Source of the DNA: a virus
Lineage: Duplodnaviria > Caudoviricetes
Length of the DNA stretch: 58,084 bases
Direction: 5' to 3' (one strand)
Virus record (IMG/VR): IMGVR_UViG_3300020442_001798
Location: 1-58,084 of that record
Shown: positions 51-56,978 of the stretch, one piece after another
Layout of the letters: the number at the start of each line of letters is the position of its first letter
How positions within the stretch are numbered: position 1 is the first letter of the stretch
Made by a program: the position numbers and the translations under genes
Notes under the pieces: model-generated
What the model saw: only the letters and a program-made list of their open reading frames with translations
Told to the model about the DNA's origin: nothing
The model's database searches: none

Positions 51-1046
51 ATGTTTAGGAGGAATAAAATGAATAGACCTTATACCGGATATGACAAGAC
101 CGCTTCTGGTAAGCGTCCGGGTTTTGAAAAACTTATTGATCTTTTGGAAGACCATTTTGGTCTTTGGAACAATGGTACTTATGCTGTGAGAAAGAAGCGT
201 GGGAAGTCAAGCTTCTCGGTTCATGCCACTGGTAGGGCAGGAGATTTGTCTTGGAGATCTGCACCTTATCGTGGGTCAGGTAATTATCAAGATGCCGTTC
301 GTATGATGGATTTTTTGGTGGACAATGCAGATGTTCTTGAGATTGAAGCTGTGTTTGATTATTATCCAAAGCCTTATGGTCGTGGATGGAAATGTGATCG
401 TAACGCTTGGAATAACTACTCTAGGAAAGCATTCAGCGGTGTTCCCGGGGGAGATTGGGTTCATGTGGAGATCTCAAATAAATATGCGGATGACCCAGCT
501 TATTATGAGCGTGTAATCGGTGATCTTCTAGGTCAGGGAGTGGCTTCTGTTAAGCCTGCTGCTAAAACTCAGACTCCTCCTTCTGGGAAGACTCCTTGGT
601 TGCAAATTGGTTCTAAAGGTGATGCTGTTAAAGAAGTTCAGGAAATTGTGGGTGCAAAACCTGATGGAGATTTTGGTCCTAAAACTGAAGAGGCTGTTAA
701 AGCGTGGCAGGCAGACCATGATCTTCATGTTGATGGTATTTGGGGTCCGGGTTCGGACAAGCACGCTAGGCGTTGTGACTGCGAAGCAGACACTCCATCA
801 CCAACCCCTCAGACGGCTCCAGAAGCCCCTCAGACATCTTCTATGAGGTATCCCGGCCCTCCAATGATTAAAGTGGGTTCTAACGAGACTGAGGCTGTGA
901 AAGCTATTCAGGCTAAGGTTGGAGCAAAGGTCGATGGTCAGTATGGACCTCAGACTCGCCAGCTTGTTCGCAACTGGCAGGCTCAGAACAGCTCTCGTCC
1001 TGACGGTATTGTTGGTCCTGCTACTTGGAGAAGAATGTTTGGATGA
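51..1046 (+). CDS. Endolysin: N-terminal Zn peptidase-like (M15/LAS-type) domain plus two peptidoglycan-binding domains
   Basis: HATGRAGD...WVHVE His/Asp/His pattern; two PG_binding_1-like repeats (DGDFGPKTEEAVKAWQ...VDGIWGP; DGQYGPQT...PDGIVGPATW). Start may be ATG 69 (AGGAGG upstream). Confidence 0.85.
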   Translation: MFRRNKMNRPYTGYDKTASGKRPGFEKLIDLLEDHFGLWNNGTYAVRKKRGKSSFSVHATGRAGDLSWRSAPYRGSGNYQDAVRMMDFLVDNADVLEIEAVFDYYPKPYGRGWKCDRNAWNNYSRKAFSGVPGGDWVHVEISNKYADDPAYYERVIGDLLGQGVASVKPAAKTQTPPSGKTPWLQIGSKGDAVKEVQEIVGAKPDGDFGPKTEEAVKAWQADHDLHVDGIWGPGSDKHARRCDCEADTPSPTPQTAPEAPQTSSMRYPGPPMIKVGSNETEAVKAIQAKVGAKVDGQYGPQTRQLVRNWQAQNSSRPDGIVGPATWRRMFG

Positions 1047-1267
1047 AAGATAAAATTATGTATATCCTTTCGGTGGGTGTTATTGCATGTATCCTCACTG
1101 CTATTGTCGGGGATTATGTGGTTGCGTCTTTTGAGACATTTGAAACAGGTGAGGCGGTCAACGTATCGTCTGATGTCATGACACTTGTTCAGACCGCTCT
1201 TGGTGGTGTTATTGGTATCATTGGTGGATACTTTGGTGCTAAAGGCTCAAACAAGAGTGACGACTGA
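1043..1267 (+). CDS. Small two-TM membrane protein, holin-like
   Basis: Two hydrophobic segments, ends IIGGYFG plus charged tail; ATGA overlap with the endolysin stop. Confidence 0.6.
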   Translation: MKDKIMYILSVGVIACILTAIVGDYVVASFETFETGEAVNVSSDVMTLVQTALGGVIGIIGGYFGAKGSNKSDD

Positions 1268-1527
1268 TGAAGGTATGGATTGATCAAGACTTATGCACAG
1301 GTGACGGCTTGTGTGCTGAAATTTGCCCTGATGTATTTGCTATGCATGATGATGGCTTAGCTTATGTGAAAGAACCTTCTTGGCCGAATCTCTTTGGGAG
1401 CGACGGCAAGGGGGACGGCCCTGCATTGCAGATGCATCAGACTGCTGAATTTGGGGAGAATCTTTTGGATTCGGTTATTGAGGCAGCAGAAGACTGCCCC
1501 GGAGAATGTATCTTTATTGAACCTTAG
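1267..1527 (+). CDS. Single-cluster ferredoxin ([3Fe-4S]/[4Fe-4S])
   Basis: MKVWIDQDLCTGDGLCAEICPDVF...EAAEDCPGECI; CxxDxxC...CP motif. Confidence 0.92.
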   Translation: MKVWIDQDLCTGDGLCAEICPDVFAMHDDGLAYVKEPSWPNLFGSDGKGDGPALQMHQTAEFGENLLDSVIEAAEDCPGECIFIEP

Positions 1528-1582: not shown

Positions 1583-3895
1583 ATGTCATGGTTTAGACCA
1601 TCTAGAACACGTTTTTTACCTGCGGCTGCTGTAGTTGCCCTCGCTATGTTCTCTTTGTTTCCGAGCGTAGCGAGGGCTTCTGCTTACACTGTGACTGAAG
1701 AGTCTGACTGGTACTTTGAGGTTGAGTCGGACGACACAAATGTTGTCATCTATGGCAACTCAAACAGTTCTTGTAACCAGTTGGCATCTGACCCTTTCTT
1801 GTGGCTGTACGACTTGTCGGGCACGGTACTCGCATCAAATGATGACGGTAACCACAATAATGAAACACAGTGCGTTTCATCAAAGATTGACACAACCCTA
1901 GACGCTGGTGTTTATCGCATTCACGCTGGGTATTGTTGTTCGCAAAGAGGGAACGGCTATGATGGTGGCGAATACGAACTCGTTACCGATCTGACGCTTG
2001 CCACCGACTTCAGCACTTACAACGGGGTGAGATTTTCTTATACTCCTGCATACATTGAGCAAACAATTGACGTTTCTTCGTATGCGGGAGAAATTGATTC
2101 AATTGTTGTCACCCCTCTTGTTAAGCGTTTCTACGATGTTAACGATTACGTGGCGACGCAGTATGCCGCTTACGACTCAGCAGGTAACTTGCTGCAAGGC
2201 AATCTGACAGCATCAGCACCTACTTCTTGGGTTGAAGTTGGGTCTAGTTGGTTTCAAGCCTCAGTGTCATCTAGTGTTCAAGATTCAACAAGTTGGGACA
2301 GTGTAAAAATTCGTATCTGGGCTAAAGACGGTGAAAGTTGGGGCGGCAACTATGGCACTGAAATAAAAGAAGTTTCATTCAAGGCGAAACTAGACGGTTC
2401 TGCGGAGTGGACTGATTTAACAAGCCTGCTTGCTAATCCATACTTTAACTCTATTAATAGTAATTCTCCACCAAGCGGCTGGTCTTCCAATGCTTCTTGG
2501 GATACATGTCAAGGTTTAACTTCTTCAACTTTGTGTGGCTTTGTAGTCAATAATTGGACATGGGCAACTCCTGCCACAACTACGACAACCACTACAACAT
2601 CTACCACAACAACTACCACCACAGTCCCTCAGACGATTGGTCCTCCAATGAACTTGACTGGGCAGGTTACAGAGAATGGTGTATTTCTTGATTGGGATGC
2701 TCCCAATACCGGCAATGTTGATCCAGAAAGATATGCAATATCTTTTCGAATACCACCGGGCGCAGGGTGGGGAGTTGCTACAGGAAATGTTGGTGATGAA
2801 AACGCTTTAAATACTGAATACACGCTTCCTTTTAGTATTTTTGAGAACACAGGTGGTCTAGGAGAGTCTTATGTGTTCGACATTCGTGCAGATAATGATA
2901 CACTAGGTGTATATTCTGGGTGGTCTTCACAGGTCACCCTTTTGGTACAGGAGGTAACACCATCAACAACATCCACAACTACTACGACAACTACGGTTCC
3001 CCCAACTACAACCACTTCCACGACAACCACCACATCAACCACAACAACGACAACCACAACAACGACAAGTACGACAACAACCACCACGGTTCCCCCAACA
3101 ACTACAACAAGTACGACAACCACAGTTCCACCAACAACCACAACAACTTCTACGACTTCAACTATCCCGCCGACTACAAGTACGACAACTACGACTACAA
3201 CAACAATTCCACCTACTACAACGTCCACCACTTCCCCTCCAACTACAACTACCACTACATCGTTGCCACCAACAACAACGTCAACGTCTACAACCACAAC
3301 GACTGTCCAGCCTGCCACAACGACGACGATTCCGACAACTACAACAACCACCGCTCCTTTGACGCTCGCAGAAGAAAGAGCTGAGGAAACTAAGATTGAG
3401 TTTGAAGAGTTAGGTATTGATACTGAAGGCGTTGATTTGCTTGAGGTTGATCAGGCTGAGATTAAAATTGTTGAAGAATTGGATCAGTTGGACGAGGAGT
3501 TAGCCGAAGACTTTTTGGATGTTGTTGACGGTGATGTGACAGTTGAAGAAGTCTCGGTTTTGATTGAAGACGATAATTTTGATGAGATTTCTGATGATGC
3601 GAAGGTTATTCTTGCGGCTGCTTTGACTGAGGCTGATGATGAAGTTAAAGATGAGTTTGAGGAATCTGTAAACATCTTTGAAGATGAGAGTTTTAATGAT
3701 TATGTCGCTAAAGATTCGAATATTACGACTGAAGAGCGACGTACTGTTGTAGCAGCCACTGCTGCTGTTGCAGCGACTGCTGGCGCTGCTGCTGGCCCTT
3801 CTGCTGGTCCTAAGCCTTCTGGAGGCGGTGGAGGCGGTGGAGGTGGCTCTGATGGCCCACGCAAGCGTGGAGGCTCATCAAGGAGGTCTAGATGA
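1583..3895 (+). CDS. Secreted/membrane-anchored modular protein: signal peptide, PPC-like domain, sugar-binding (FBA/galactose-binding-like) domain, Fn3, Thr-rich stalk, acidic domain, Ala-rich anchor and basic tail
   Basis: N-terminal hydrophobic stretch ending ARA; DPFLWLYD...LASNDDG...LDAGVYRI; GPPMNL...LDWDAP...YVFDIRADN (Fn3); poly-Thr/Pro region; C-terminal RKRGGSSRRSR. Confidence 0.75.
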   Translation: MSWFRPSRTRFLPAAAVVALAMFSLFPSVARASAYTVTEESDWYFEVESDDTNVVIYGNSNSSCNQLASDPFLWLYDLSGTVLASNDDGNHNNETQCVSSKIDTTLDAGVYRIHAGYCCSQRGNGYDGGEYELVTDLTLATDFSTYNGVRFSYTPAYIEQTIDVSSYAGEIDSIVVTPLVKRFYDVNDYVATQYAAYDSAGNLLQGNLTASAPTSWVEVGSSWFQASVSSSVQDSTSWDSVKIRIWAKDGESWGGNYGTEIKEVSFKAKLDGSAEWTDLTSLLANPYFNSINSNSPPSGWSSNASWDTCQGLTSSTLCGFVVNNWTWATPATTTTTTTTSTTTTTTTVPQTIGPPMNLTGQVTENGVFLDWDAPNTGNVDPERYAISFRIPPGAGWGVATGNVGDENALNTEYTLPFSIFENTGGLGESYVFDIRADNDTLGVYSGWSSQVTLLVQEVTPSTTSTTTTTTTVPPTTTTSTTTTTSTTTTTTTTTTSTTTTTTVPPTTTTSTTTTVPPTTTTTSTTSTIPPTTSTTTTTTTTIPPTTTSTTSPPTTTTTTSLPPTTTSTSTTTTTVQPATTTTIPTTTTTTAPLTLAEERAEETKIEFEELGIDTEGVDLLEVDQAEIKIVEELDQLDEELAEDFLDVVDGDVTVEEVSVLIEDDNFDEISDDAKVILAAALTEADDEVKDEFEESVNIFEDESFNDYVAKDSNITTEERRTVVAATAAVAATAGAAAGPSAGPKPSGGGGGGGGGSDGPRKRGGSSRRSR
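2955..3355 (+). repeat. Low-complexity ACN-codon repeat encoding a Thr/Pro mucin-like stalk
   Basis: Runs of acaacaact/acgacaacc encoding TTTTTVPPTTTTS units. Confidence 0.9.
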
Positions 3896-4077
3896 TTAAA
3901 AAGATTTTGAAAAGAGTGCTAAAGGAAAGTTATTCCTTAGCTTGGACTCTTGCTGGTACTGGCTTAGTTTTAATTACTTTGTCGGGTCAGACTAGAGATT
4001 GGGGCATATGGATAAGCCTTTCCGCTCTCACAGTACACTTGCTTGCTATTATCTTTATATCAGAAGACGAATTGTAA
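3892..4077 (+). CDS. Small two-TM membrane protein coupled to the Thr-rich protein
   Basis: ATGA overlap with upstream stop; LAWTLAGTGLVLITLSG and WGIWISLSALTVHLLAIIF hydrophobic helices. Confidence 0.7.
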   Translation: MIKKILKRVLKESYSLAWTLAGTGLVLITLSGQTRDWGIWISLSALTVHLLAIIFISEDEL

Positions 4078-4103
4078 GCATATCCTTCTAAGCATTTATT
4101 AGG

Positions 4104-4109
4104 TATAAT
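4104..4109 (+). promoter_or_regulatory. -10 box (TATAAT) 6 nt upstream of ATG 4116; leaderless promoter
   Basis: aggTATAATggtatcATG with no Shine-Dalgarno. Confidence 0.6.
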
Positions 4110-4115
4110 GGTATC

Positions 4116-4193
4116 ATGAGAAATAAGTATTGTGAATGCGGTTGTGAATGTGAAGAGGGTTGCGGATGCGGCTGTGATTCATGTAACTGCTGA
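4116..4193 (+). CDS. 25-aa Cys-rich metallothionein-like peptide (absent from ORF track)
   Basis: Hand translation MRNKYCECGCECEEGCGCGCDSCNC*, 9 Cys in CxC motifs; fills the intergenic gap. Confidence 0.7.
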   Translation: MRNKYCECGCECEEGCGCGCDSCNC

Positions 4194-4205
4194 ATGGAGA
4201 TTTAA

Positions 4206-5129
4206 ATGGATGACGTAAAAATTGATACATCAAAAACTCTTACTCTGACTCTTCCGAGTGACGCTGACTCTAATAATGTTACGGTTGTGTTAACACATGA
4301 GTTTGGTGATGTAGTGCAGGCATCTACTGCCGCAACAAGATCGTCTGAAGGGGTGTATACAATAACTTACGGCCAGCAGGATTCGGGCATTTATGTTTTA
4401 AATTCTGCTGGAAAGTACAGGGCTGATTTCACTTATTCGATTAGTAGCACTGAGTATACTCAGTCTCAATATATTAATGTGTACACACCATATATTACTT
4501 GGGCAGAGTTTTTGACAAACCATAGCGATTTGAGCGGGTATGCTTCTCAGTTTGATCATTTTGAGAAGAGAGCAAGGAATATTATTGACACTCACTGTGG
4601 GCAGTCTTTTGAATATTACCCAAATAAAAGTTTGACTTTAGATGGAGGCAATCATAAAAATTTGCATTTGCCTATTCCGATTGCAACTTTAAGAAAAGTT
4701 ACATTTAATGCGGGCGATTCCGATGCAGAGGTTATTCACGACTACGCAGATTCAAGTCTTTTAAATATTGAAAAAGTCAGGCAATCGTTTAATTTTGAAT
4801 CTTCTTTTTATTTAAGATTTAAAGCTAATATTGTACAAACAAATACATCTAGAATTCTAGGTAAGACTTTTAAGCAACATTCTGATTACAAGGTTGAAGG
4901 GGACTTTGGTTGGAGATATGTTCCCATGAATATTAAGCAGGCTGCCGATTTGATTATTGCAGACTTAATGAATGATGATTCTGAGTACCGTCGTCATGGT
5001 ATTACAAGTGTAGATATGGATACTATTAGCTTTAGTATGAAGGGTTCTTTCTATGAAAGCACTGGAAATATTGAAGCAGATGTCCTCCTTACAGACTACA
5101 CCTTGTTTGTTATGGATTATATTACCTGA
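4206..5129 (+). CDS. Head-tail adaptor/connector protein
   Basis: First gene of neck cluster; ARNIIDTHCG and GWRYVPMNIKQAADLII resemble gp6/gp15-type adaptors. Confidence 0.6.
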   Translation: MDDVKIDTSKTLTLTLPSDADSNNVTVVLTHEFGDVVQASTAATRSSEGVYTITYGQQDSGIYVLNSAGKYRADFTYSISSTEYTQSQYINVYTPYITWAEFLTNHSDLSGYASQFDHFEKRARNIIDTHCGQSFEYYPNKSLTLDGGNHKNLHLPIPIATLRKVTFNAGDSDAEVIHDYADSSLLNIEKVRQSFNFESSFYLRFKANIVQTNTSRILGKTFKQHSDYKVEGDFGWRYVPMNIKQAADLIIADLMNDDSEYRRHGITSVDMDTISFSMKGSFYESTGNIEADVLLTDYTLFVMDYIT

Positions 5130-23111: not shown

Positions 23112-23315
23112 ATGGATATTAAAACAAACATTCCACTTAAATGCACTCGTTGCGGAGGGGCTAAGTATATTGATGAGCCTTATCCGATTTTCGACACTTG
23201 GTATGTGGATGTTGTTTGTATTGCTTGCGGTCACGCAAAAGATATTCCTGTGTCGGAGCTAAGGGAACTAATTTCTAAACTTGAGTCTGCAATGAGGAAG
23301 AAAATTGATAAGTGA
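23112..23315 (+). CDS. Zn-ribbon protein
   Basis: CTRC...CIACG; TGGTAAAAT 6 nt upstream of ATG. Confidence 0.7.
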   Translation: MDIKTNIPLKCTRCGGAKYIDEPYPIFDTWYVDVVCIACGHAKDIPVSELRELISKLESAMRKKIDK

Positions 23316-23769
23316 TAAGGTAATTACTAATAAAATTTACATGTACGCTGGCTCTTTACACAAAGTAAAACGAGTTCAAAAGAAAAATGGTAAAGTTGTG
23401 TTGAGCAGTATGAAAGATTCTTCTGAAGTTGTTGTGCCGCTGGCTGGCTCTGATTTATTGCTTTCTAGAGTTTATACTATTGGTGAAGTGGCAAAAATTG
23501 TTGAGCGTAGACCTGATACAATTAGGAAGTACGAAAGGTCGGGTCTTATCCCAAAACCAGTCGCTGTCGGTGAAGAGTACCCATCGTATAAGAACTGGCG
23601 ATTCTACTCCCATCCAGATGTCTATGAGATTGTCGATTTTTTTTCAAATAGAACCCCCGGTCGCCCCGTAAAAAGAGTAGAGTCTATCGAATCCGTTGAT
23701 AATCGGATTCAAAATCTAAACCAAAAAGTAAAAATGACAGCAAGGAGCATACAAAATGCAAGAATCTAA
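23305..23769 (+). CDS. MerR-type HTH DNA-binding protein
   Basis: YTIGEVAKIVERRPDTIRKYERSGLIP...WRFYS. Confidence 0.85.
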   Translation: MISDKVITNKIYMYAGSLHKVKRVQKKNGKVVLSSMKDSSEVVVPLAGSDLLLSRVYTIGEVAKIVERRPDTIRKYERSGLIPKPVAVGEEYPSYKNWRFYSHPDVYEIVDFFSNRTPGRPVKRVESIESVDNRIQNLNQKVKMTARSIQNARI

Positions 23770-28147: not shown

Positions 28148-29077
28148 GTGTCTGATTTTGATGTGTTGTTTTCGGATTTGTTTTTGTCTGAAGATGATGT
28201 GTATGGGTTGTCTGTTGTTGAGCGTGAGCGTCGTGTTGATGATTTGATTGTGCAGGCGTTTGATATTTATGATTATGCTGTTCGTGAGTATGTGACGGAT
28301 CGTAATCGTTCGCTGAAGTCTACTGCTGTGTTGTTTTCTGGTGGTAATGATTCGACGTTTTTGTTGCACTTGTTTAGGGACGCTGCTGATGTTGCTGTTC
28401 ATATTGATACAACTATTGGTATTAGGGAGACTCGCCAATTTGTGGATGAGACTTGTGCGTTGTTTGGTGTTCCTTTGATGGTTGAGTCTGCGCCTGTGCC
28501 TTATCGTGATTTGGTTGTTGAGTTGGGTTTTCCGGGGCCTTCGTTGCATTATATTATGTATCAGAGGTTGAAGGAGCGTGCTGTTGATGCTGTGCGTAGG
28601 AAGTTGTTGGAATTTCCTCGTCGTGAGTTGGTTGTGTTTTTGTCTGGTAGGCGTAGAACGGAGTCTCATCGTCGTGCGTCTGTTCCGTATTTGAGTCGTG
28701 ATGGTGCTCAGGTGTGGTGTTCGCCTGTTGCTAATTGGACTAAGCCTGATATTGCGACGTATAAAGCTAGGTTTGATGATTTTCCTGTGAATCCTGTTTC
28801 TGAGTTGATTCATATGAGTGGTGAGTGTTTGTGTGGGGCGTTTGCTTCGAAGGGTGAGTTTGAGCAGTTGAAATTTTTCTTCCCTGAGATGGCTGAATTG
28901 ATTCATCAGTTGGAGCATGAGGTCGCTAAGAATGATAAGATTCCTGATTATCAGAAGCAGTGGGGGTGGGGTAGTTATGCTCAGAATCATCATCGTGCCC
29001 GTGCTAAGAATAGTCAAGATGTAAAAGTTGGTCCGTTGTGTTCGGATTGTGAGTTTAGGTTGGGTGACCATGACTGA
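28148..29077 (+). CDS. PAPS-reductase-like PP-loop protein
   Basis: LFSGGNDS PP-loop, GRRRTESHRR, SPVANWT, C-terminal GECLCG and LCSDC. Confidence 0.85.
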   Translation: MSDFDVLFSDLFLSEDDVYGLSVVERERRVDDLIVQAFDIYDYAVREYVTDRNRSLKSTAVLFSGGNDSTFLLHLFRDAADVAVHIDTTIGIRETRQFVDETCALFGVPLMVESAPVPYRDLVVELGFPGPSLHYIMYQRLKERAVDAVRRKLLEFPRRELVVFLSGRRRTESHRRASVPYLSRDGAQVWCSPVANWTKPDIATYKARFDDFPVNPVSELIHMSGECLCGAFASKGEFEQLKFFFPEMAELIHQLEHEVAKNDKIPDYQKQWGWGSYAQNHHRARAKNSQDVKVGPLCSDCEFRLGDHD

Positions 29078-37837: not shown

Positions 37838-37963
37838 ATGGAAATAAAGCGCGTTGAGGAGTCTCTGGAAAAGATTTCTGAACTCGGTAAATACACTTTA
37901 TATAAAGTAAGTGATGATGATGAACCAACTGTTTTGGAGAGCACTGTCGAAGAGCAAGGCTGA
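37838..37963 (+). CDS. 41-aa hypothetical peptide (absent from ORF track)
   Basis: GGAGG SD; MEIKRVEESLEKISELGKYTLYKV...EEQG*. Confidence 0.45.
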   Translation: MEIKRVEESLEKISELGKYTLYKVSDDDEPTVLESTVEEQG

Positions 37964-38984
37964 CGGTTACGGTTACGCATCATACAGGATTTCCTCTGGT
38001 CTCAGACATGCCGGTCTATCTGTGTCTGAGCCAGAGGATTTTCTTGTTCATGGCAAGACTCAAGAAGTTGATGTTTTGATTTCTATGCAAGATGGTTTGA
38101 TGCTAGAACCAATACCTCCTGTTCAGCGTGGAGATGTTTTAGTTAACAACTGTTTACCAGTTGACTACAAACTTGGTGATTGTTATAACATTGGTTTTTC
38201 TTATTGGGAAACTACAAAGATGCCTAGCTCTTGGATTCCCAAGTTGAATGAGTGTGATGAAGTTTGGACTACTTCAAAGTGGGCTGGCGAGGTGTTCAAG
38301 GAGAACACTGGTCACGATAATGTTCACGCTTTTAAGTTGGGCGTAGAGTCTGATTTGTTTTGGCATTCGGATAGCGTGCCCGATGGCATGTTTACGTTTT
38401 TGCATGTGGGTAGCCCATCCACTCGTAAAAACACCCAGATGGCCGTAGACGCTTTTATAAAGGCATATGGTCATAGAGACGGTTTTCAGTTGATTGTGAA
38501 GTCTATCGGCCCTCCTGATGCTCGTATACGGGATGGCAACATGATTCTCGGTGGCGTTGGGATGCATGATCGAATTCATGTTATTGACTATGAGATGTCT
38601 GAGTCAGATCTTGCAGACTTGTACAGGTCTGCTCATTGCCTTTTGTATCCAACTATGGGAGAGGGGTGGGGCATGATTCCTTTTAATGCTATTGCTTGTG
38701 GCACTCCTACTATTTGCACTAACGCTACTGCCTGTACAGAATATGCGGAGTTATCTGTACCATTAGATTTTGAATGGTCTACAGAAGGTATTGCTGGCAT
38801 TTATGACTGTGGTGGCAAATGGGCTAAACCCAGCATGAATGATCTTATTGATAAAATGCATTATGTTGTTGATAATTATGAAGATATTAAGCGGCATACT
38901 TTAGAAAGTGCTATAATTATTCATAAGGTATATTCTTGGGATAAAGTTGTTCAAGAATACAAGGAGCGCTTGTGTCAGATATAG
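37911..38984 (+). CDS. Glycosyltransferase, GT-B fold (GT4-like)
   Basis: WET...DEVWTTS, RKN, LYRSAHCLLYPTMGEGWGM...AIACGTP. Confidence 0.88.
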   Translation: MMMMNQLFWRALSKSKADGYGYASYRISSGLRHAGLSVSEPEDFLVHGKTQEVDVLISMQDGLMLEPIPPVQRGDVLVNNCLPVDYKLGDCYNIGFSYWETTKMPSSWIPKLNECDEVWTTSKWAGEVFKENTGHDNVHAFKLGVESDLFWHSDSVPDGMFTFLHVGSPSTRKNTQMAVDAFIKAYGHRDGFQLIVKSIGPPDARIRDGNMILGGVGMHDRIHVIDYEMSESDLADLYRSAHCLLYPTMGEGWGMIPFNAIACGTPTICTNATACTEYAELSVPLDFEWSTEGIAGIYDCGGKWAKPSMNDLIDKMHYVVDNYEDIKRHTLESAIIIHKVYSWDKVVQEYKERLCQI

Positions 38985-49490: not shown

Positions 49491-49874
49491 ATGTCGTTCT
49501 TTTCTGATGATGATATTGAACAGGCCATTAAGAATATGGGTGAAGTCCCAGATGGTTTGATTGATAATACTAATTATGTAGATTTATTTGCTGCCCATGT
49601 GGAATGTATAGATTCTCTTGATATTAATGATGAAGAGTCTAGATTGACATACATGATGAGAATTGTGAATATGGTTGGCGACCCTTCTGATGAAGATTTT
49701 GAAGTTAGAACGGTTGAGAATGCTACATGCATGACGTTTCATATTATTAATCTTCTTCAAATTGGTTCAATGATGAAAGATGATTTTGTAGAAATGTATG
49801 TTGATAGTTTGAGGAATGAGGTTTTACCTCAACTTAACCAAGATAAGGGAGCGATGCCGTATTGGAACAATTAG
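49491..49874 (+). CDS. Acidic hypothetical protein
   Basis: 127 aa ORF. Confidence 0.6.
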   Translation: MSFFSDDDIEQAIKNMGEVPDGLIDNTNYVDLFAAHVECIDSLDINDEESRLTYMMRIVNMVGDPSDEDFEVRTVENATCMTFHIINLLQIGSMMKDDFVEMYVDSLRNEVLPQLNQDKGAMPYWNN

Positions 49875-50149
49875 ATGAATCATGGATGAAAGATGCTTTA
49901 TGCAAAGACCATGATACAGGATTGTTTTATCCAGATACTGGTGAAACTAATCAAGCAAGACAGGCAATAATGATATGTAAACGTTGTCCTGTTCGTGCTG
50001 AGTGTTTGTATTCAGCATTGTCTAGCCCAGAAACTTTTGGTGTATGGGGTGGGTATAGTTATCGTGGTAGGAGAAAATTGGTAAAAACTTTACAAGGTCC
50101 AATAACAATGGAGTTGATTAAGAAAGTTGTAAATGATGGTGTATACTAA
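49862..50149 (+). CDS. whiB: WhiB-family transcription factor
   Basis: WMKDALC...FYP...CKRCPVRAEC...GVWGG...R. Confidence 0.9.
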   Translation: MEQLDESWMKDALCKDHDTGLFYPDTGETNQARQAIMICKRCPVRAECLYSALSSPETFGVWGGYSYRGRRKLVKTLQGPITMELIKKVVNDGVY

Positions 50150-56903: not shown

Positions 56904-56976
56904 ACCCTTATAGCTCAATGGATAGAGCAAATGACTTCTAATCATTAGGTTGCAGGTTCGAATCCTGCTAAGGGTG
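56904..56976 (+). tRNA. tRNA-Arg (anticodon UCU)
   Basis: Acceptor ACCCTTA/TAAGGGT, D-arm GCTC/GAGC, anticodon arm AATGA-CTTCTAA-TCATT, T-arm GCAGG-TTCGAAT-CCTGC; CCA not encoded. Confidence 0.93.
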
Positions 56977-56978
56977 CT

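Follow-up and report, generated by a model that had tools for sequence, protein, structure and literature searches.

Metallothioneins of the SmtA/BmtA type are proteins of about 55 amino acids (aa), about twice the length of the phage peptide described here, and the Neurospora crassa copper metallothionein and the vertebrate metallothionein beta-domain have about 25-30 residues, CxC motifs and no hydrophobic core. In the vertebrate beta-domain, nine Cys bind three divalent ions or about six Cu(I). Synthetic phytochelatins are gene-encoded (Glu-Cys)n-Gly peptides for metal accumulation, and MymT, the mycobacterial copper metallothionein, has about 53 aa and a gene that was originally missed by annotation. 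Passages in PMC7387436 ascribe a copper detoxification role to MymT and describe Zn3Cys9His and Cd4Cys9His clusters formed by the Pseudomonas metallothionein PflQ2. Short Cys-rich open reading frames (ORFs) have a further described use: parts of a preprint on mycobacteria (bioRxiv 10.1101/834739) present polycysteine leaderless short ORFs, whose defining trait is at least two consecutive Cys codons, as cysteine-responsive attenuators that control cysteine-metabolism genes, with mRNA structure sequestering the downstream ribosome-binding site unless ribosomes stall. Here, we analyzed a small ORF for a 25-aa peptide with nine Cys on a linear IMG/VR virus contig (IMGVR_UViG_3300020442_001798) of 58,084 bases with a completeness estimate of 56%; "the window" below means this whole stretch. 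We find that the small ORF belongs to a conserved phage family, and we give about even odds to a metallothionein-like product, a metal-thiolate peptide whose synthesis would accompany that of the late genes.

The small ORF reads from ATG to TGA in the gap between a membrane-type gene and a head-tail adaptor gene.

Positions 4116..4193, + strand: small ORF (25 codons and a TGA stop) for the nine-Cys peptide MRNKYCECGCECEEGCGCGCDSCNC (sequence reading and family conservation)

Cys accounts for 9 of the 25 residues (36%), each sitting in at least one CxC, in the spacing CxCxCxC-x3-CxCxC-x2-CxC with the last Cys as the C terminus; beyond Met1 there are no aliphatic residues and one Tyr. On re-reading, the initial annotation of this DNA had described these features accurately (25 aa, nine Cys all in CxC, and a TATAAT 6 nucleotides (nt) before the ATG). 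The small ORF holds 9 Cys, whereas in 100 sequences simulated from a first-order Markov model of the window, the most Cys-rich run of 20 codons free of stops had 5-7. Read out of frame, a GCT/GCA-rich, Ala-coding stretch within a 770-aa gene of the window (3745-3805, + strand) yields 10 Cys over 20 codons, a compositional artifact. A high Cys density is therefore no proof by itself, and we regard conservation in relatives as the decisive evidence for a real gene.

Because a pattern search finds only what it asks for, relatives gathered via neighboring genes were kept apart from those found by pattern. In the adaptor-centered sample (the best 80 of 144 IMG/VR stretches, 76 of them usable upstream), a small ORF lies directly upstream of the adaptor in 8 of 76 loci (L008-L010 and L012-L016; adaptor identity 66-83%), always with nine Cys in the same spacing; the upstream sequence of locus L011 is too short, yet the same contig carries the small ORF (as L215). 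The sample centered on a 111-aa LtfC-like protein has the small ORF in 10 of 18 loci, with a short spacer alone in the other 8, and the endolysin-centered sample has it in 14 of 78 usable loci; many contigs are fragments, and absences of the small ORF are uncertain. Cys-rich segments in L477, L492 and L494 of the endolysin-centered set were rejected as off-frame and unrelated to the family. The loci hold an intact copy or none, with nine Cys kept in every neighbor-gathered copy and no substituted Cys seen in any copy across the three samples; occasional changes fall at Gly and Glu positions (L455, L456, L474 and P0004).

Codon usage points in the same direction. In the set of 11 distinct sequences obtained by context, TGT and TGC both occur at every one of the nine Cys positions without replacement, the Gly columns hold three and four codons, and the Arg and Lys columns vary synonymously only; across the family, Arg is encoded by AGA, AGG and CGT. 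Mean pairwise pN/pS over 24 codons was 0.20 (55 pairs), with 0 at Cys codons and 0.46 at the others. Start and stop are conserved in the forward frame only: a stop interrupts the +3 frame in all 32 sequences, and the +2 frame is open for compositional reasons only. From these substitutions we conclude that the small ORF is a true gene on which purifying selection acts at the peptide level. The initial annotation had staked its reading on the Cys pattern recurring in relatives, and the pattern is indeed kept, with synonymous variation at the Cys codons.

As judged from the sequences compared, this selection pattern already contradicts the view that the small ORF is a chance or decaying, functionless by-product of a TG-rich intergenic spacer, which we consider extremely improbable. 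That view could draw on the loss of the small ORF in the close relatives L001-L007, on the window copy being the most divergent member of the family and without a Shine-Dalgarno leader, and on the off-frame artifact with 10 Cys elsewhere in the window. Against it, the 49 peptide variants known over 108 loci all keep the frame, the stop and the nine Cys, synonymous sites are saturated with zero Cys replacement, the leaderless form is conserved between the window and locus L309, and positions 4050-4260 contain no tandem repeat. In L001-L007, the closest relatives (adaptor identity 88-93%), the small ORF is a decayed remnant whose ATG is changed to ATA and which has lost about 47 nt internally (for example, L001:3900-4009 versus window 4060-4214), and the promoter motif and the adaptor ribosome-binding site are retained. 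This decay indicates that the small ORF is dispensable and that the adaptor can be expressed without it; L001-L007 represent a natural knockout lineage.

To describe the family as a whole, we used the strict pattern CxCGC[E/D]C-x3-CxCGC-x2-CxC-stop, which matched 57 IMG/VR contigs and 53 metagenome contigs, 51 of the latter belonging to the family. In all, the census comprises 108 loci with 49 distinct peptides; as the two collections may share contigs, the number of independent loci is 108 at most. The peptides are 23-32 aa long across the 49 variants (two loci were instead assigned a 44-aa start by our script) and follow the consensus (M)-x(0-7)-R-x-K-x-CxCGC[E/D]C-x-[E/D/Q]-[H/Q]-CxCGC-[E/D]-x-C-x-C-stop. 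Residues between the Cys are mainly acidic, the C-terminal residue is always Cys, and the Lys before the first Cys is invariant and the Arg there near-invariant in the family; a shorter subgroup lacks R-x-K (L325, L333, L337, L353 and L359). Most members have at most one Val or Ile, and many combine nine Cys with one His, the His position being commonly His ahead of the adaptor, Gln ahead of the LtfC-like gene and Gly in the window.

The strict pattern had no match in one genome per species for 185,579 bacterial and archaeal species. A looser pattern returned 27 stretches from cellular genomes, which we rejected as dinucleotide repeats or unrelated Cys-rich ORFs, none having the terminal Cys-stop together with the family N terminus. 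A nine-TGY-codon pattern returned at least 123 stretches, nearly all of them TGY trinucleotide repeats, with L179 and L196 real among the matches listed. One contig of an archaeal metagenome-assembled genome (L298, about 1501-1560, - strand) encodes a 289-aa ORF with long CxC-rich repeat runs that is unrelated to the family, though an unusual Cys-rich protein in its own right. Searching a 29-member profile against 1,835,955,588 representative proteins gave four matches of 29-44 aa, all of them family members and none within a larger protein. This distribution indicates that the family is restricted to phages. The expectation that such a gene would be systematically missed by annotation was borne out, with only these 4 matches in 1.84 billion proteins, a near-absence that we attribute to the peptide lying below usual gene-caller size limits.

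Selection on nine thiols within 20 residues, in a peptide with no hydrophobic core or signal peptide and with no maturase nearby, argues that the cysteines carry the function. We detected no signal peptide or hydrophobic segment in the peptide. A scan of the 88 window ORFs and of the neighbors of L208 and L217 likewise brought up no maturase, of the radical-SAM type or any other, which argues for a cytoplasmic, unmodified product. Precursors of ribosomally made, modified peptides, such as radical-SAM-modified Cys-rich ones, would have a modifying enzyme encoded alongside, and none was found among these genes. Using the working definition of a metallothionein given in a section of PMC7387436, we found low molecular mass (25 aa in the window, 23-32 aa in the family), a high and conserved content of Cys in CxC motifs and few aromatic or hydrophobic residues. 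The SmtA/BmtA and other Pfam metallothionein profiles gave no match. AlphaFold2 run without metals gave a mean pLDDT of 63.5 and no secondary structure, a result compatible with metal-dependent folding and no evidence for it.

In the mechanism that we propose, the small ORF would be translated as an accessory gene. It would usually open the late virion operon or be translationally coupled to the endolysin gene ahead of it, and either arrangement would have the peptide made with the late genes. In the reducing cytoplasm, its nine thiolates may enclose soft metal ions in a metal-thiolate cluster like those of metallothioneins, holding perhaps about three Zn(II) or Cd(II), or more Cu(I), per peptide if the nine-cysteine clusters of known metallothioneins are a guide. 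Late in infection, the peptide could thereby serve as a small buffer or donor of metal. Translation, metal binding, the choice of metal and the benefit to the phage are all things that we infer. Zinc supply to, or control of, the neighboring zinc-type endolysin is an attractive possibility, to which co-occurrence lends weak backing.

Several results weigh against a metallothionein-like role. None of the 29 family members matches any Pfam model at E <= 10, metallothionein families included (the window peptide alone has no match at E <= 1), no PDB chain matches at E <= 10, and an ESM Atlas language-model search gave best scores of 0.79-0.80 to unnamed clusters, with nothing >=0.8 carrying a family name. 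No metal-responsive regulator adjoins the small ORF, the only MerR-type gene lying about 19 kb away, and a general metal buffer does not account for the conserved position between endolysin and virion genes. The gene is dispensable and patchy, being decayed in L001-L007 and absent from most related loci. The only matching RNA libraries, two from one sample, share a small part of the sampled words, and their contigs cover only 4350-4528, inside the adaptor gene and short of the small ORF, on which they are silent. A strongly acidic make-up is, to our knowledge, unusual among metallothioneins. The label metallothionein-like, given in the initial annotation, fits in size, composition and motif but has no counterpart in a Pfam metallothionein family or PDB match at E <= 10. 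By these comparisons, the peptide lies outside every known metallothionein sequence family; should it prove to be a metallothionein, it would represent a new type confined to phages. The text portions returned by full-text literature searches contained no report of a phage-encoded metallothionein.

The genes around the small ORF bear on what it might serve. In the window, its surroundings are as follows.

Positions 51..1046, + strand: endolysin (PHROG endolysin families; PF01471), with a C-terminal half of PG_binding_1 repeats
Positions 1267..1527, + strand: 86-aa single-cluster 4Fe-4S ferredoxin (PF13459, E 2.2e-18)
Positions 1583-3895, + strand: 770-aa Thr-rich protein
Positions 3892..4077, + strand: small protein of membrane type, 61 aa, next to the small ORF on its upstream side (phrog_29041)
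Positions 4206..5129, + strand: head-tail adaptor (307 aa; phrog_442, E 2.2e-11), with which the large genes of the virion module begin

Across the 57 IMG/VR loci found by pattern, the gene downstream of the small ORF is one of two kinds.

17 of 57 loci: head-tail adaptor, -7 to 27 nt from the small-ORF stop
39 of 57 loci: LtfC-like beta-sandwich protein of about 111 aa (phrog_1084, PF23926), 0 to 34 nt from the stop
1 of 57 loci: none (truncated locus)

The LtfC-like gene is followed by virion structural genes, and homology between the adaptor and the LtfC-like protein was rejected (hhalign probability 1%). On the other side, the upstream gene belongs to one BLAST-linked endolysin cluster in 47 of 57 IMG/VR loci, and the endolysin catalytic domain of about 176 aa is 31% identical to the N-terminal domain of the window endolysin (E 2e-15; L217, 177-aa form). 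With an AlphaFold2 model of this endolysin family (pLDDT 83), Foldseek ranked VldE 9flm first (E 1.4e-3, target TM 0.71), followed by LdcB 4oxd, DacB and the hedgehog N-domain, and the ~176-aa domain thus appears to resemble LAS-type zinc peptidases in predicted fold. At the sequence level, support for the LAS assignment is weak, with insignificant matches to VanY (E 0.027) and Peptidase_M15_4 (E 0.073); the catalytic domain (51-560, + strand; L204:1599-2114, - strand) has no PDB sequence match, and the ~176-aa form falls in no PHROG family. The domain is widespread, occurring in at least 557 confirmed IMG/VR stretches.

This neighborhood raises a second reading, that the peptide is joined through metal to one particular phage protein, the endolysin or an adjacent virion or assembly protein, and serves it as a tiny zinc-knuckle-like subunit, a chaperone or an inhibitor rather than being a free buffer; we judge this rather unlikely. 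An endolysin-type gene directly upstream in 47 of 57 IMG/VR loci, the predicted LAS zinc peptidase fold shared by that family, a gap of -7 to 34 nt between the small-ORF stop and the next start codon (that of the adaptor in 17 loci and of the LtfC-like protein in 39), and the invariant Lys and near-invariant Arg ahead of the first Cys, which suggest a contact surface, would all fit such a partner. The candidate downstream partners are mutually unrelated, however, the peptide is present in only 14 of 78 LAS-type endolysin loci and missing from 8 of 18 LtfC-like loci, and relatives without the small ORF retain the same adaptor and promoter.

The 14-of-78 count also weakens any tight linkage to the endolysin itself. 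In the window lineage, about 3 kb (the ferredoxin, 770-aa and membrane genes) separate the endolysin from the small ORF, and a phrog_29041-type membrane gene is also found upstream of the small ORF in L238, L259 and L309. Since the neighbors vary and the links to endolysin and ferredoxin are loose, we take the stable feature to be the junction between lysis module and virion module, and no single neighbor. The 770-aa protein, encoded between the lysis and virion genes, is unusual and looks mucin-like: its N terminus resembles a signal sequence, its linkers are long runs of poly-Thr, and its tail is first acidic and then rich in Gly and Arg. No PHROG match and no significant Pfam match was obtained for this protein.

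The ferredoxin suggests a third reading, in which the peptide binds an iron-sulfur (Fe-S) cluster or takes part in thiol redox or antioxidant chemistry, either jointly with the phage ferredoxin or to guard thiol proteins late in infection. CxC runs are typical of metal-thiolate clusters and not, as far as is known, of Fe-S ligand motifs, and this counts against the idea. In its favor, the small ORF abuts a ferredoxin gene with a 0-nt gap, the adaptor being next, in three metagenome loci (L325, L353 and L359), a homologous ferredoxin lies 2.6 kb upstream in the same module of the window, and oxidative-stress and sulfur genes are reported from freshwater phages in sections of PMC6802176. However, none of 80 ferredoxin-centered viral loci carries the small ORF within 1.2 kb, which led us to reject ferredoxin linkage as a general rule, and the peptide type of those three loci also occurs where there is no ferredoxin (L333 and L337). 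We consider this role improbable. The initial annotation had also supposed a metal service to the many Cys/Fe-S phage proteins, a notion that found no backing beyond the three metagenome contacts, given the 0 of 80 ferredoxin-centered loci. The small 4Fe-4S ferredoxin of the window is very common in viral contigs, with 333 confirmed IMG/VR relatives. In the subgroup lacking R-x-K (L325:1-651; L353:3-689; L359, L333 and L337, - strand), the upstream protein has a DSGGF motif and a C-terminal Cys cluster.

We then considered how the small ORF and the adaptor would be expressed. Two signals flank the small ORF.

Positions 4104..4114, + strand: putative -10 promoter element TATAAT (4104-4109) within the motif TATAATGGTAT (sequence and conservation in relatives)
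Positions 4196..4199, + strand: GGAG Shine-Dalgarno of the adaptor gene, 2 nt past the small-ORF stop and 6 nt before the adaptor ATG

The spacer from TATAAT to ATG is 6 nt (4110-4115) and holds no Shine-Dalgarno, and the window transcript may plausibly begin with the ATG itself or right beside it and so be leaderless; a sigma-70 scan found no -35 partner for the TATAAT at 4104-4109. The promoter-like TATAAT singled out by the initial annotation proved to be part of a conserved motif: TATAATGGTAT or a close variant precedes the small-ORF site in the window, L001-L012, L309 and the ferredoxin-context loci L325 and L359, and it is kept in L001-L012 although the surrounding sequence differs. Motifs of the TATAATGGTAT type recur ahead of the virion operon in distant relatives and are a candidate late promoter of the phage group. 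The block TGCTGAATGGAGATTTAAATG is kept in L001-L009, even where the small ORF is deleted. The placement of the GGAG, between the small-ORF stop and the adaptor ATG, implies close translational coupling.

At 12 of 88 window ORF starts (among them 51, 6497, 20237, 20508, 23112 and 42077), a -10-like hexamer lies 4-12 nt before the start codon, 11 of these without a Shine-Dalgarno, which suggests that leaderless or near-leaderless transcripts are frequent in the window. Within the small-ORF family, most loci have a Shine-Dalgarno leader (~17-27 nt) and others overlap the endolysin stop (TGATG or TAATG), the division between these two classes by our script being rough; a leaderless start occurs in 3 of 108 loci (the window, L309 and L330). 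All three start types keep the reading frame of the small ORF. The alignment shows that the window lineage lost a 17-nt leader, which makes the leaderless start a rare, derived state as far as the aligned loci tell. Between the window and L309, which share 204 of 229 adaptor residues, the 6-nt spacing is the same and the small ORFs differ at 13 codons (6 synonymous, 7 non-synonymous), none of them Cys, indicating that the leaderless form has been maintained. The leaderless promoter postulated earlier therefore stands for the window at the sequence level and is unusual within the family.

The start architecture and the Cys codons invite comparison with the mycobacterial attenuators. As a cysteine-sensing leader, the small ORF would slow ribosomes at its nine Cys codons when Cys-tRNA is scarce and so tune translation of the coupled virion genes. 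The host group is actinobacterial, as the window encodes WhiB; the window copy is a leaderless first cistron, at the sequence level, with its stop 2 nt from the adaptor Shine-Dalgarno; 36% of its codons are Cys; the mycobacterial precedent is described in parts of bioRxiv 10.1101/834739; and a phage PAPS-reductase gene hints at an interest in sulfur metabolism. Set against this, consecutive Cys codons are absent from the window copy, and one CC pair occurs in only 2 of 49 variants. The downstream genes encode virion proteins (adaptor, LtfC-like) or ferredoxin and not cysteine metabolism. The predicted fold of 4116-4235 has -21.9 kcal/mol (z -1.52), 16 of 200 shuffles fold as well, the GGAG at 4196-4199 is unpaired in the centroid structure, and the hairpin is internal to the small ORF. 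The leaderless start is limited to 3 of 108 loci, and the fixed Cys spacing with conserved Gly, Arg, Lys and acidic residues indicates selection on the peptide. The window copy thus departs from four of five defining features of such leaders, namely consecutive Cys, a sequestering structure, cysteine-metabolism targets and an unconstrained peptide, and we find a leader function less likely than the metallothionein-like reading and, taken on its own, hard to credit.

The wider window helps to place the phage and its host. Its long ORFs lie nearly all on the + strand, with a GC content of 36-46%, and WhiB, a PAPS-reductase-domain protein, a DnaE-type polymerase and RecA are all encoded. The following features lie away from the small ORF or elsewhere in the window.

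Positions 23305-23766, + strand: MerR-family regulator, the only MerR-type gene of the window, about 19 kb from the small ORF
Positions 28148-29074, + strand: PAPS-reductase-domain gene, away from the small ORF
Positions 37911-38981, + strand: GT4 glycosyltransferase of a "conflict systems" family, away from the small ORF
Positions 49862-50146, + strand: WhiB gene, away from the small ORF
Positions 56904-56977, + strand: tRNA-Arg(TCT), the single tRNA gene of the window

Sections of PMC6802176 describe WhiB as a marker of actinobacterial phages, and by its gene content the phage is an uncultured, WhiB-encoding actinobacterial phage, with a host that we place no finer than Actinobacteria. Among cultured phages, relatives of the adaptor come only from Streptomyces (86 records) and Rhodococcus (3 records), all below 60% identity. 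Megablast of the first 12 kb of the window against cultured phage records gave no match, nor did tblastn of a 32-aa family member against the same records, where the low-complexity filter may mask one. Isolates of phages that infect 'Ca. Nanopelagicales' are described in PMC10202952. AGA is the usual codon of the conserved Arg in the small ORF, and the single tRNA of the window is tRNA-Arg(TCT).

Taken further, the metallothionein-like reading leads to a broader proposal that we hold only tentatively: the peptide may be the first virus-encoded metallothionein, phage-specific and made late in very small freshwater actinobacterial hosts, which captures zinc or copper and passes it to, or withholds it from, phage metalloproteins such as the neighboring LAS-type zinc endolysin. 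If so, these peptides would be among the shortest metallothioneins known (23-32 residues, nine Cys), and metal supply would be a phage-controlled resource late in infection, possibly affecting lysis. Should the peptide bind metals, phages would join the encoders of metallothionein-like proteins, and the auxiliary functions with which they equip the abundant freshwater Actinobacteria would come to include metal handling. Whatever its function, this strongly selected family is nearly missing from protein databases because its members are smaller than gene callers normally accept. At this length the peptide can be synthesized, making the central claim directly and cheaply testable.

Among known systems, the SmtA/BmtA type, including PflQ2, shares with the phage peptides small size, Cys richness, nine cysteines and, probably, cytoplasmic location, with many phage members also having nine Cys and one His. 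Unlike SmtA/BmtA proteins, they are 23-32 aa long, have CxC spacing only, are strongly acidic and always end in Cys; they are phage-only (0 strict-pattern matches in 185,579 cellular genomes) and have no SmtB-like regulator nearby. The His is replaced by Gln in many phage members and by Gly in the window. Like MymT, the window peptide is a small Cys-rich peptide in an actinobacterial setting, but homology is unlikely, as the profile found no relative above 44 aa among 1.84 billion representatives. The mycobacterial polycysteine short ORFs are likewise unannotated, rich in Cys codons, actinobacterial in setting, placed as the first cistron of an operon and, as in the window copy, leaderless, whereas in the phage family the peptide sequence itself is conserved and most members are not leaderless. 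With the Neurospora protein and the vertebrate beta-domain there is no detectable sequence relation, the Cys spacing is different and the phage peptide is acidic; the stoichiometry is only an analogy. Like synthetic phytochelatins, the phage peptides alternate acidic residues with Cys in an ordinary alpha-peptide (the window peptide contains CECGCECEE); unlike them, they form a natural family, in which a fixed pattern with two CGC units takes the place of a simple repeat.

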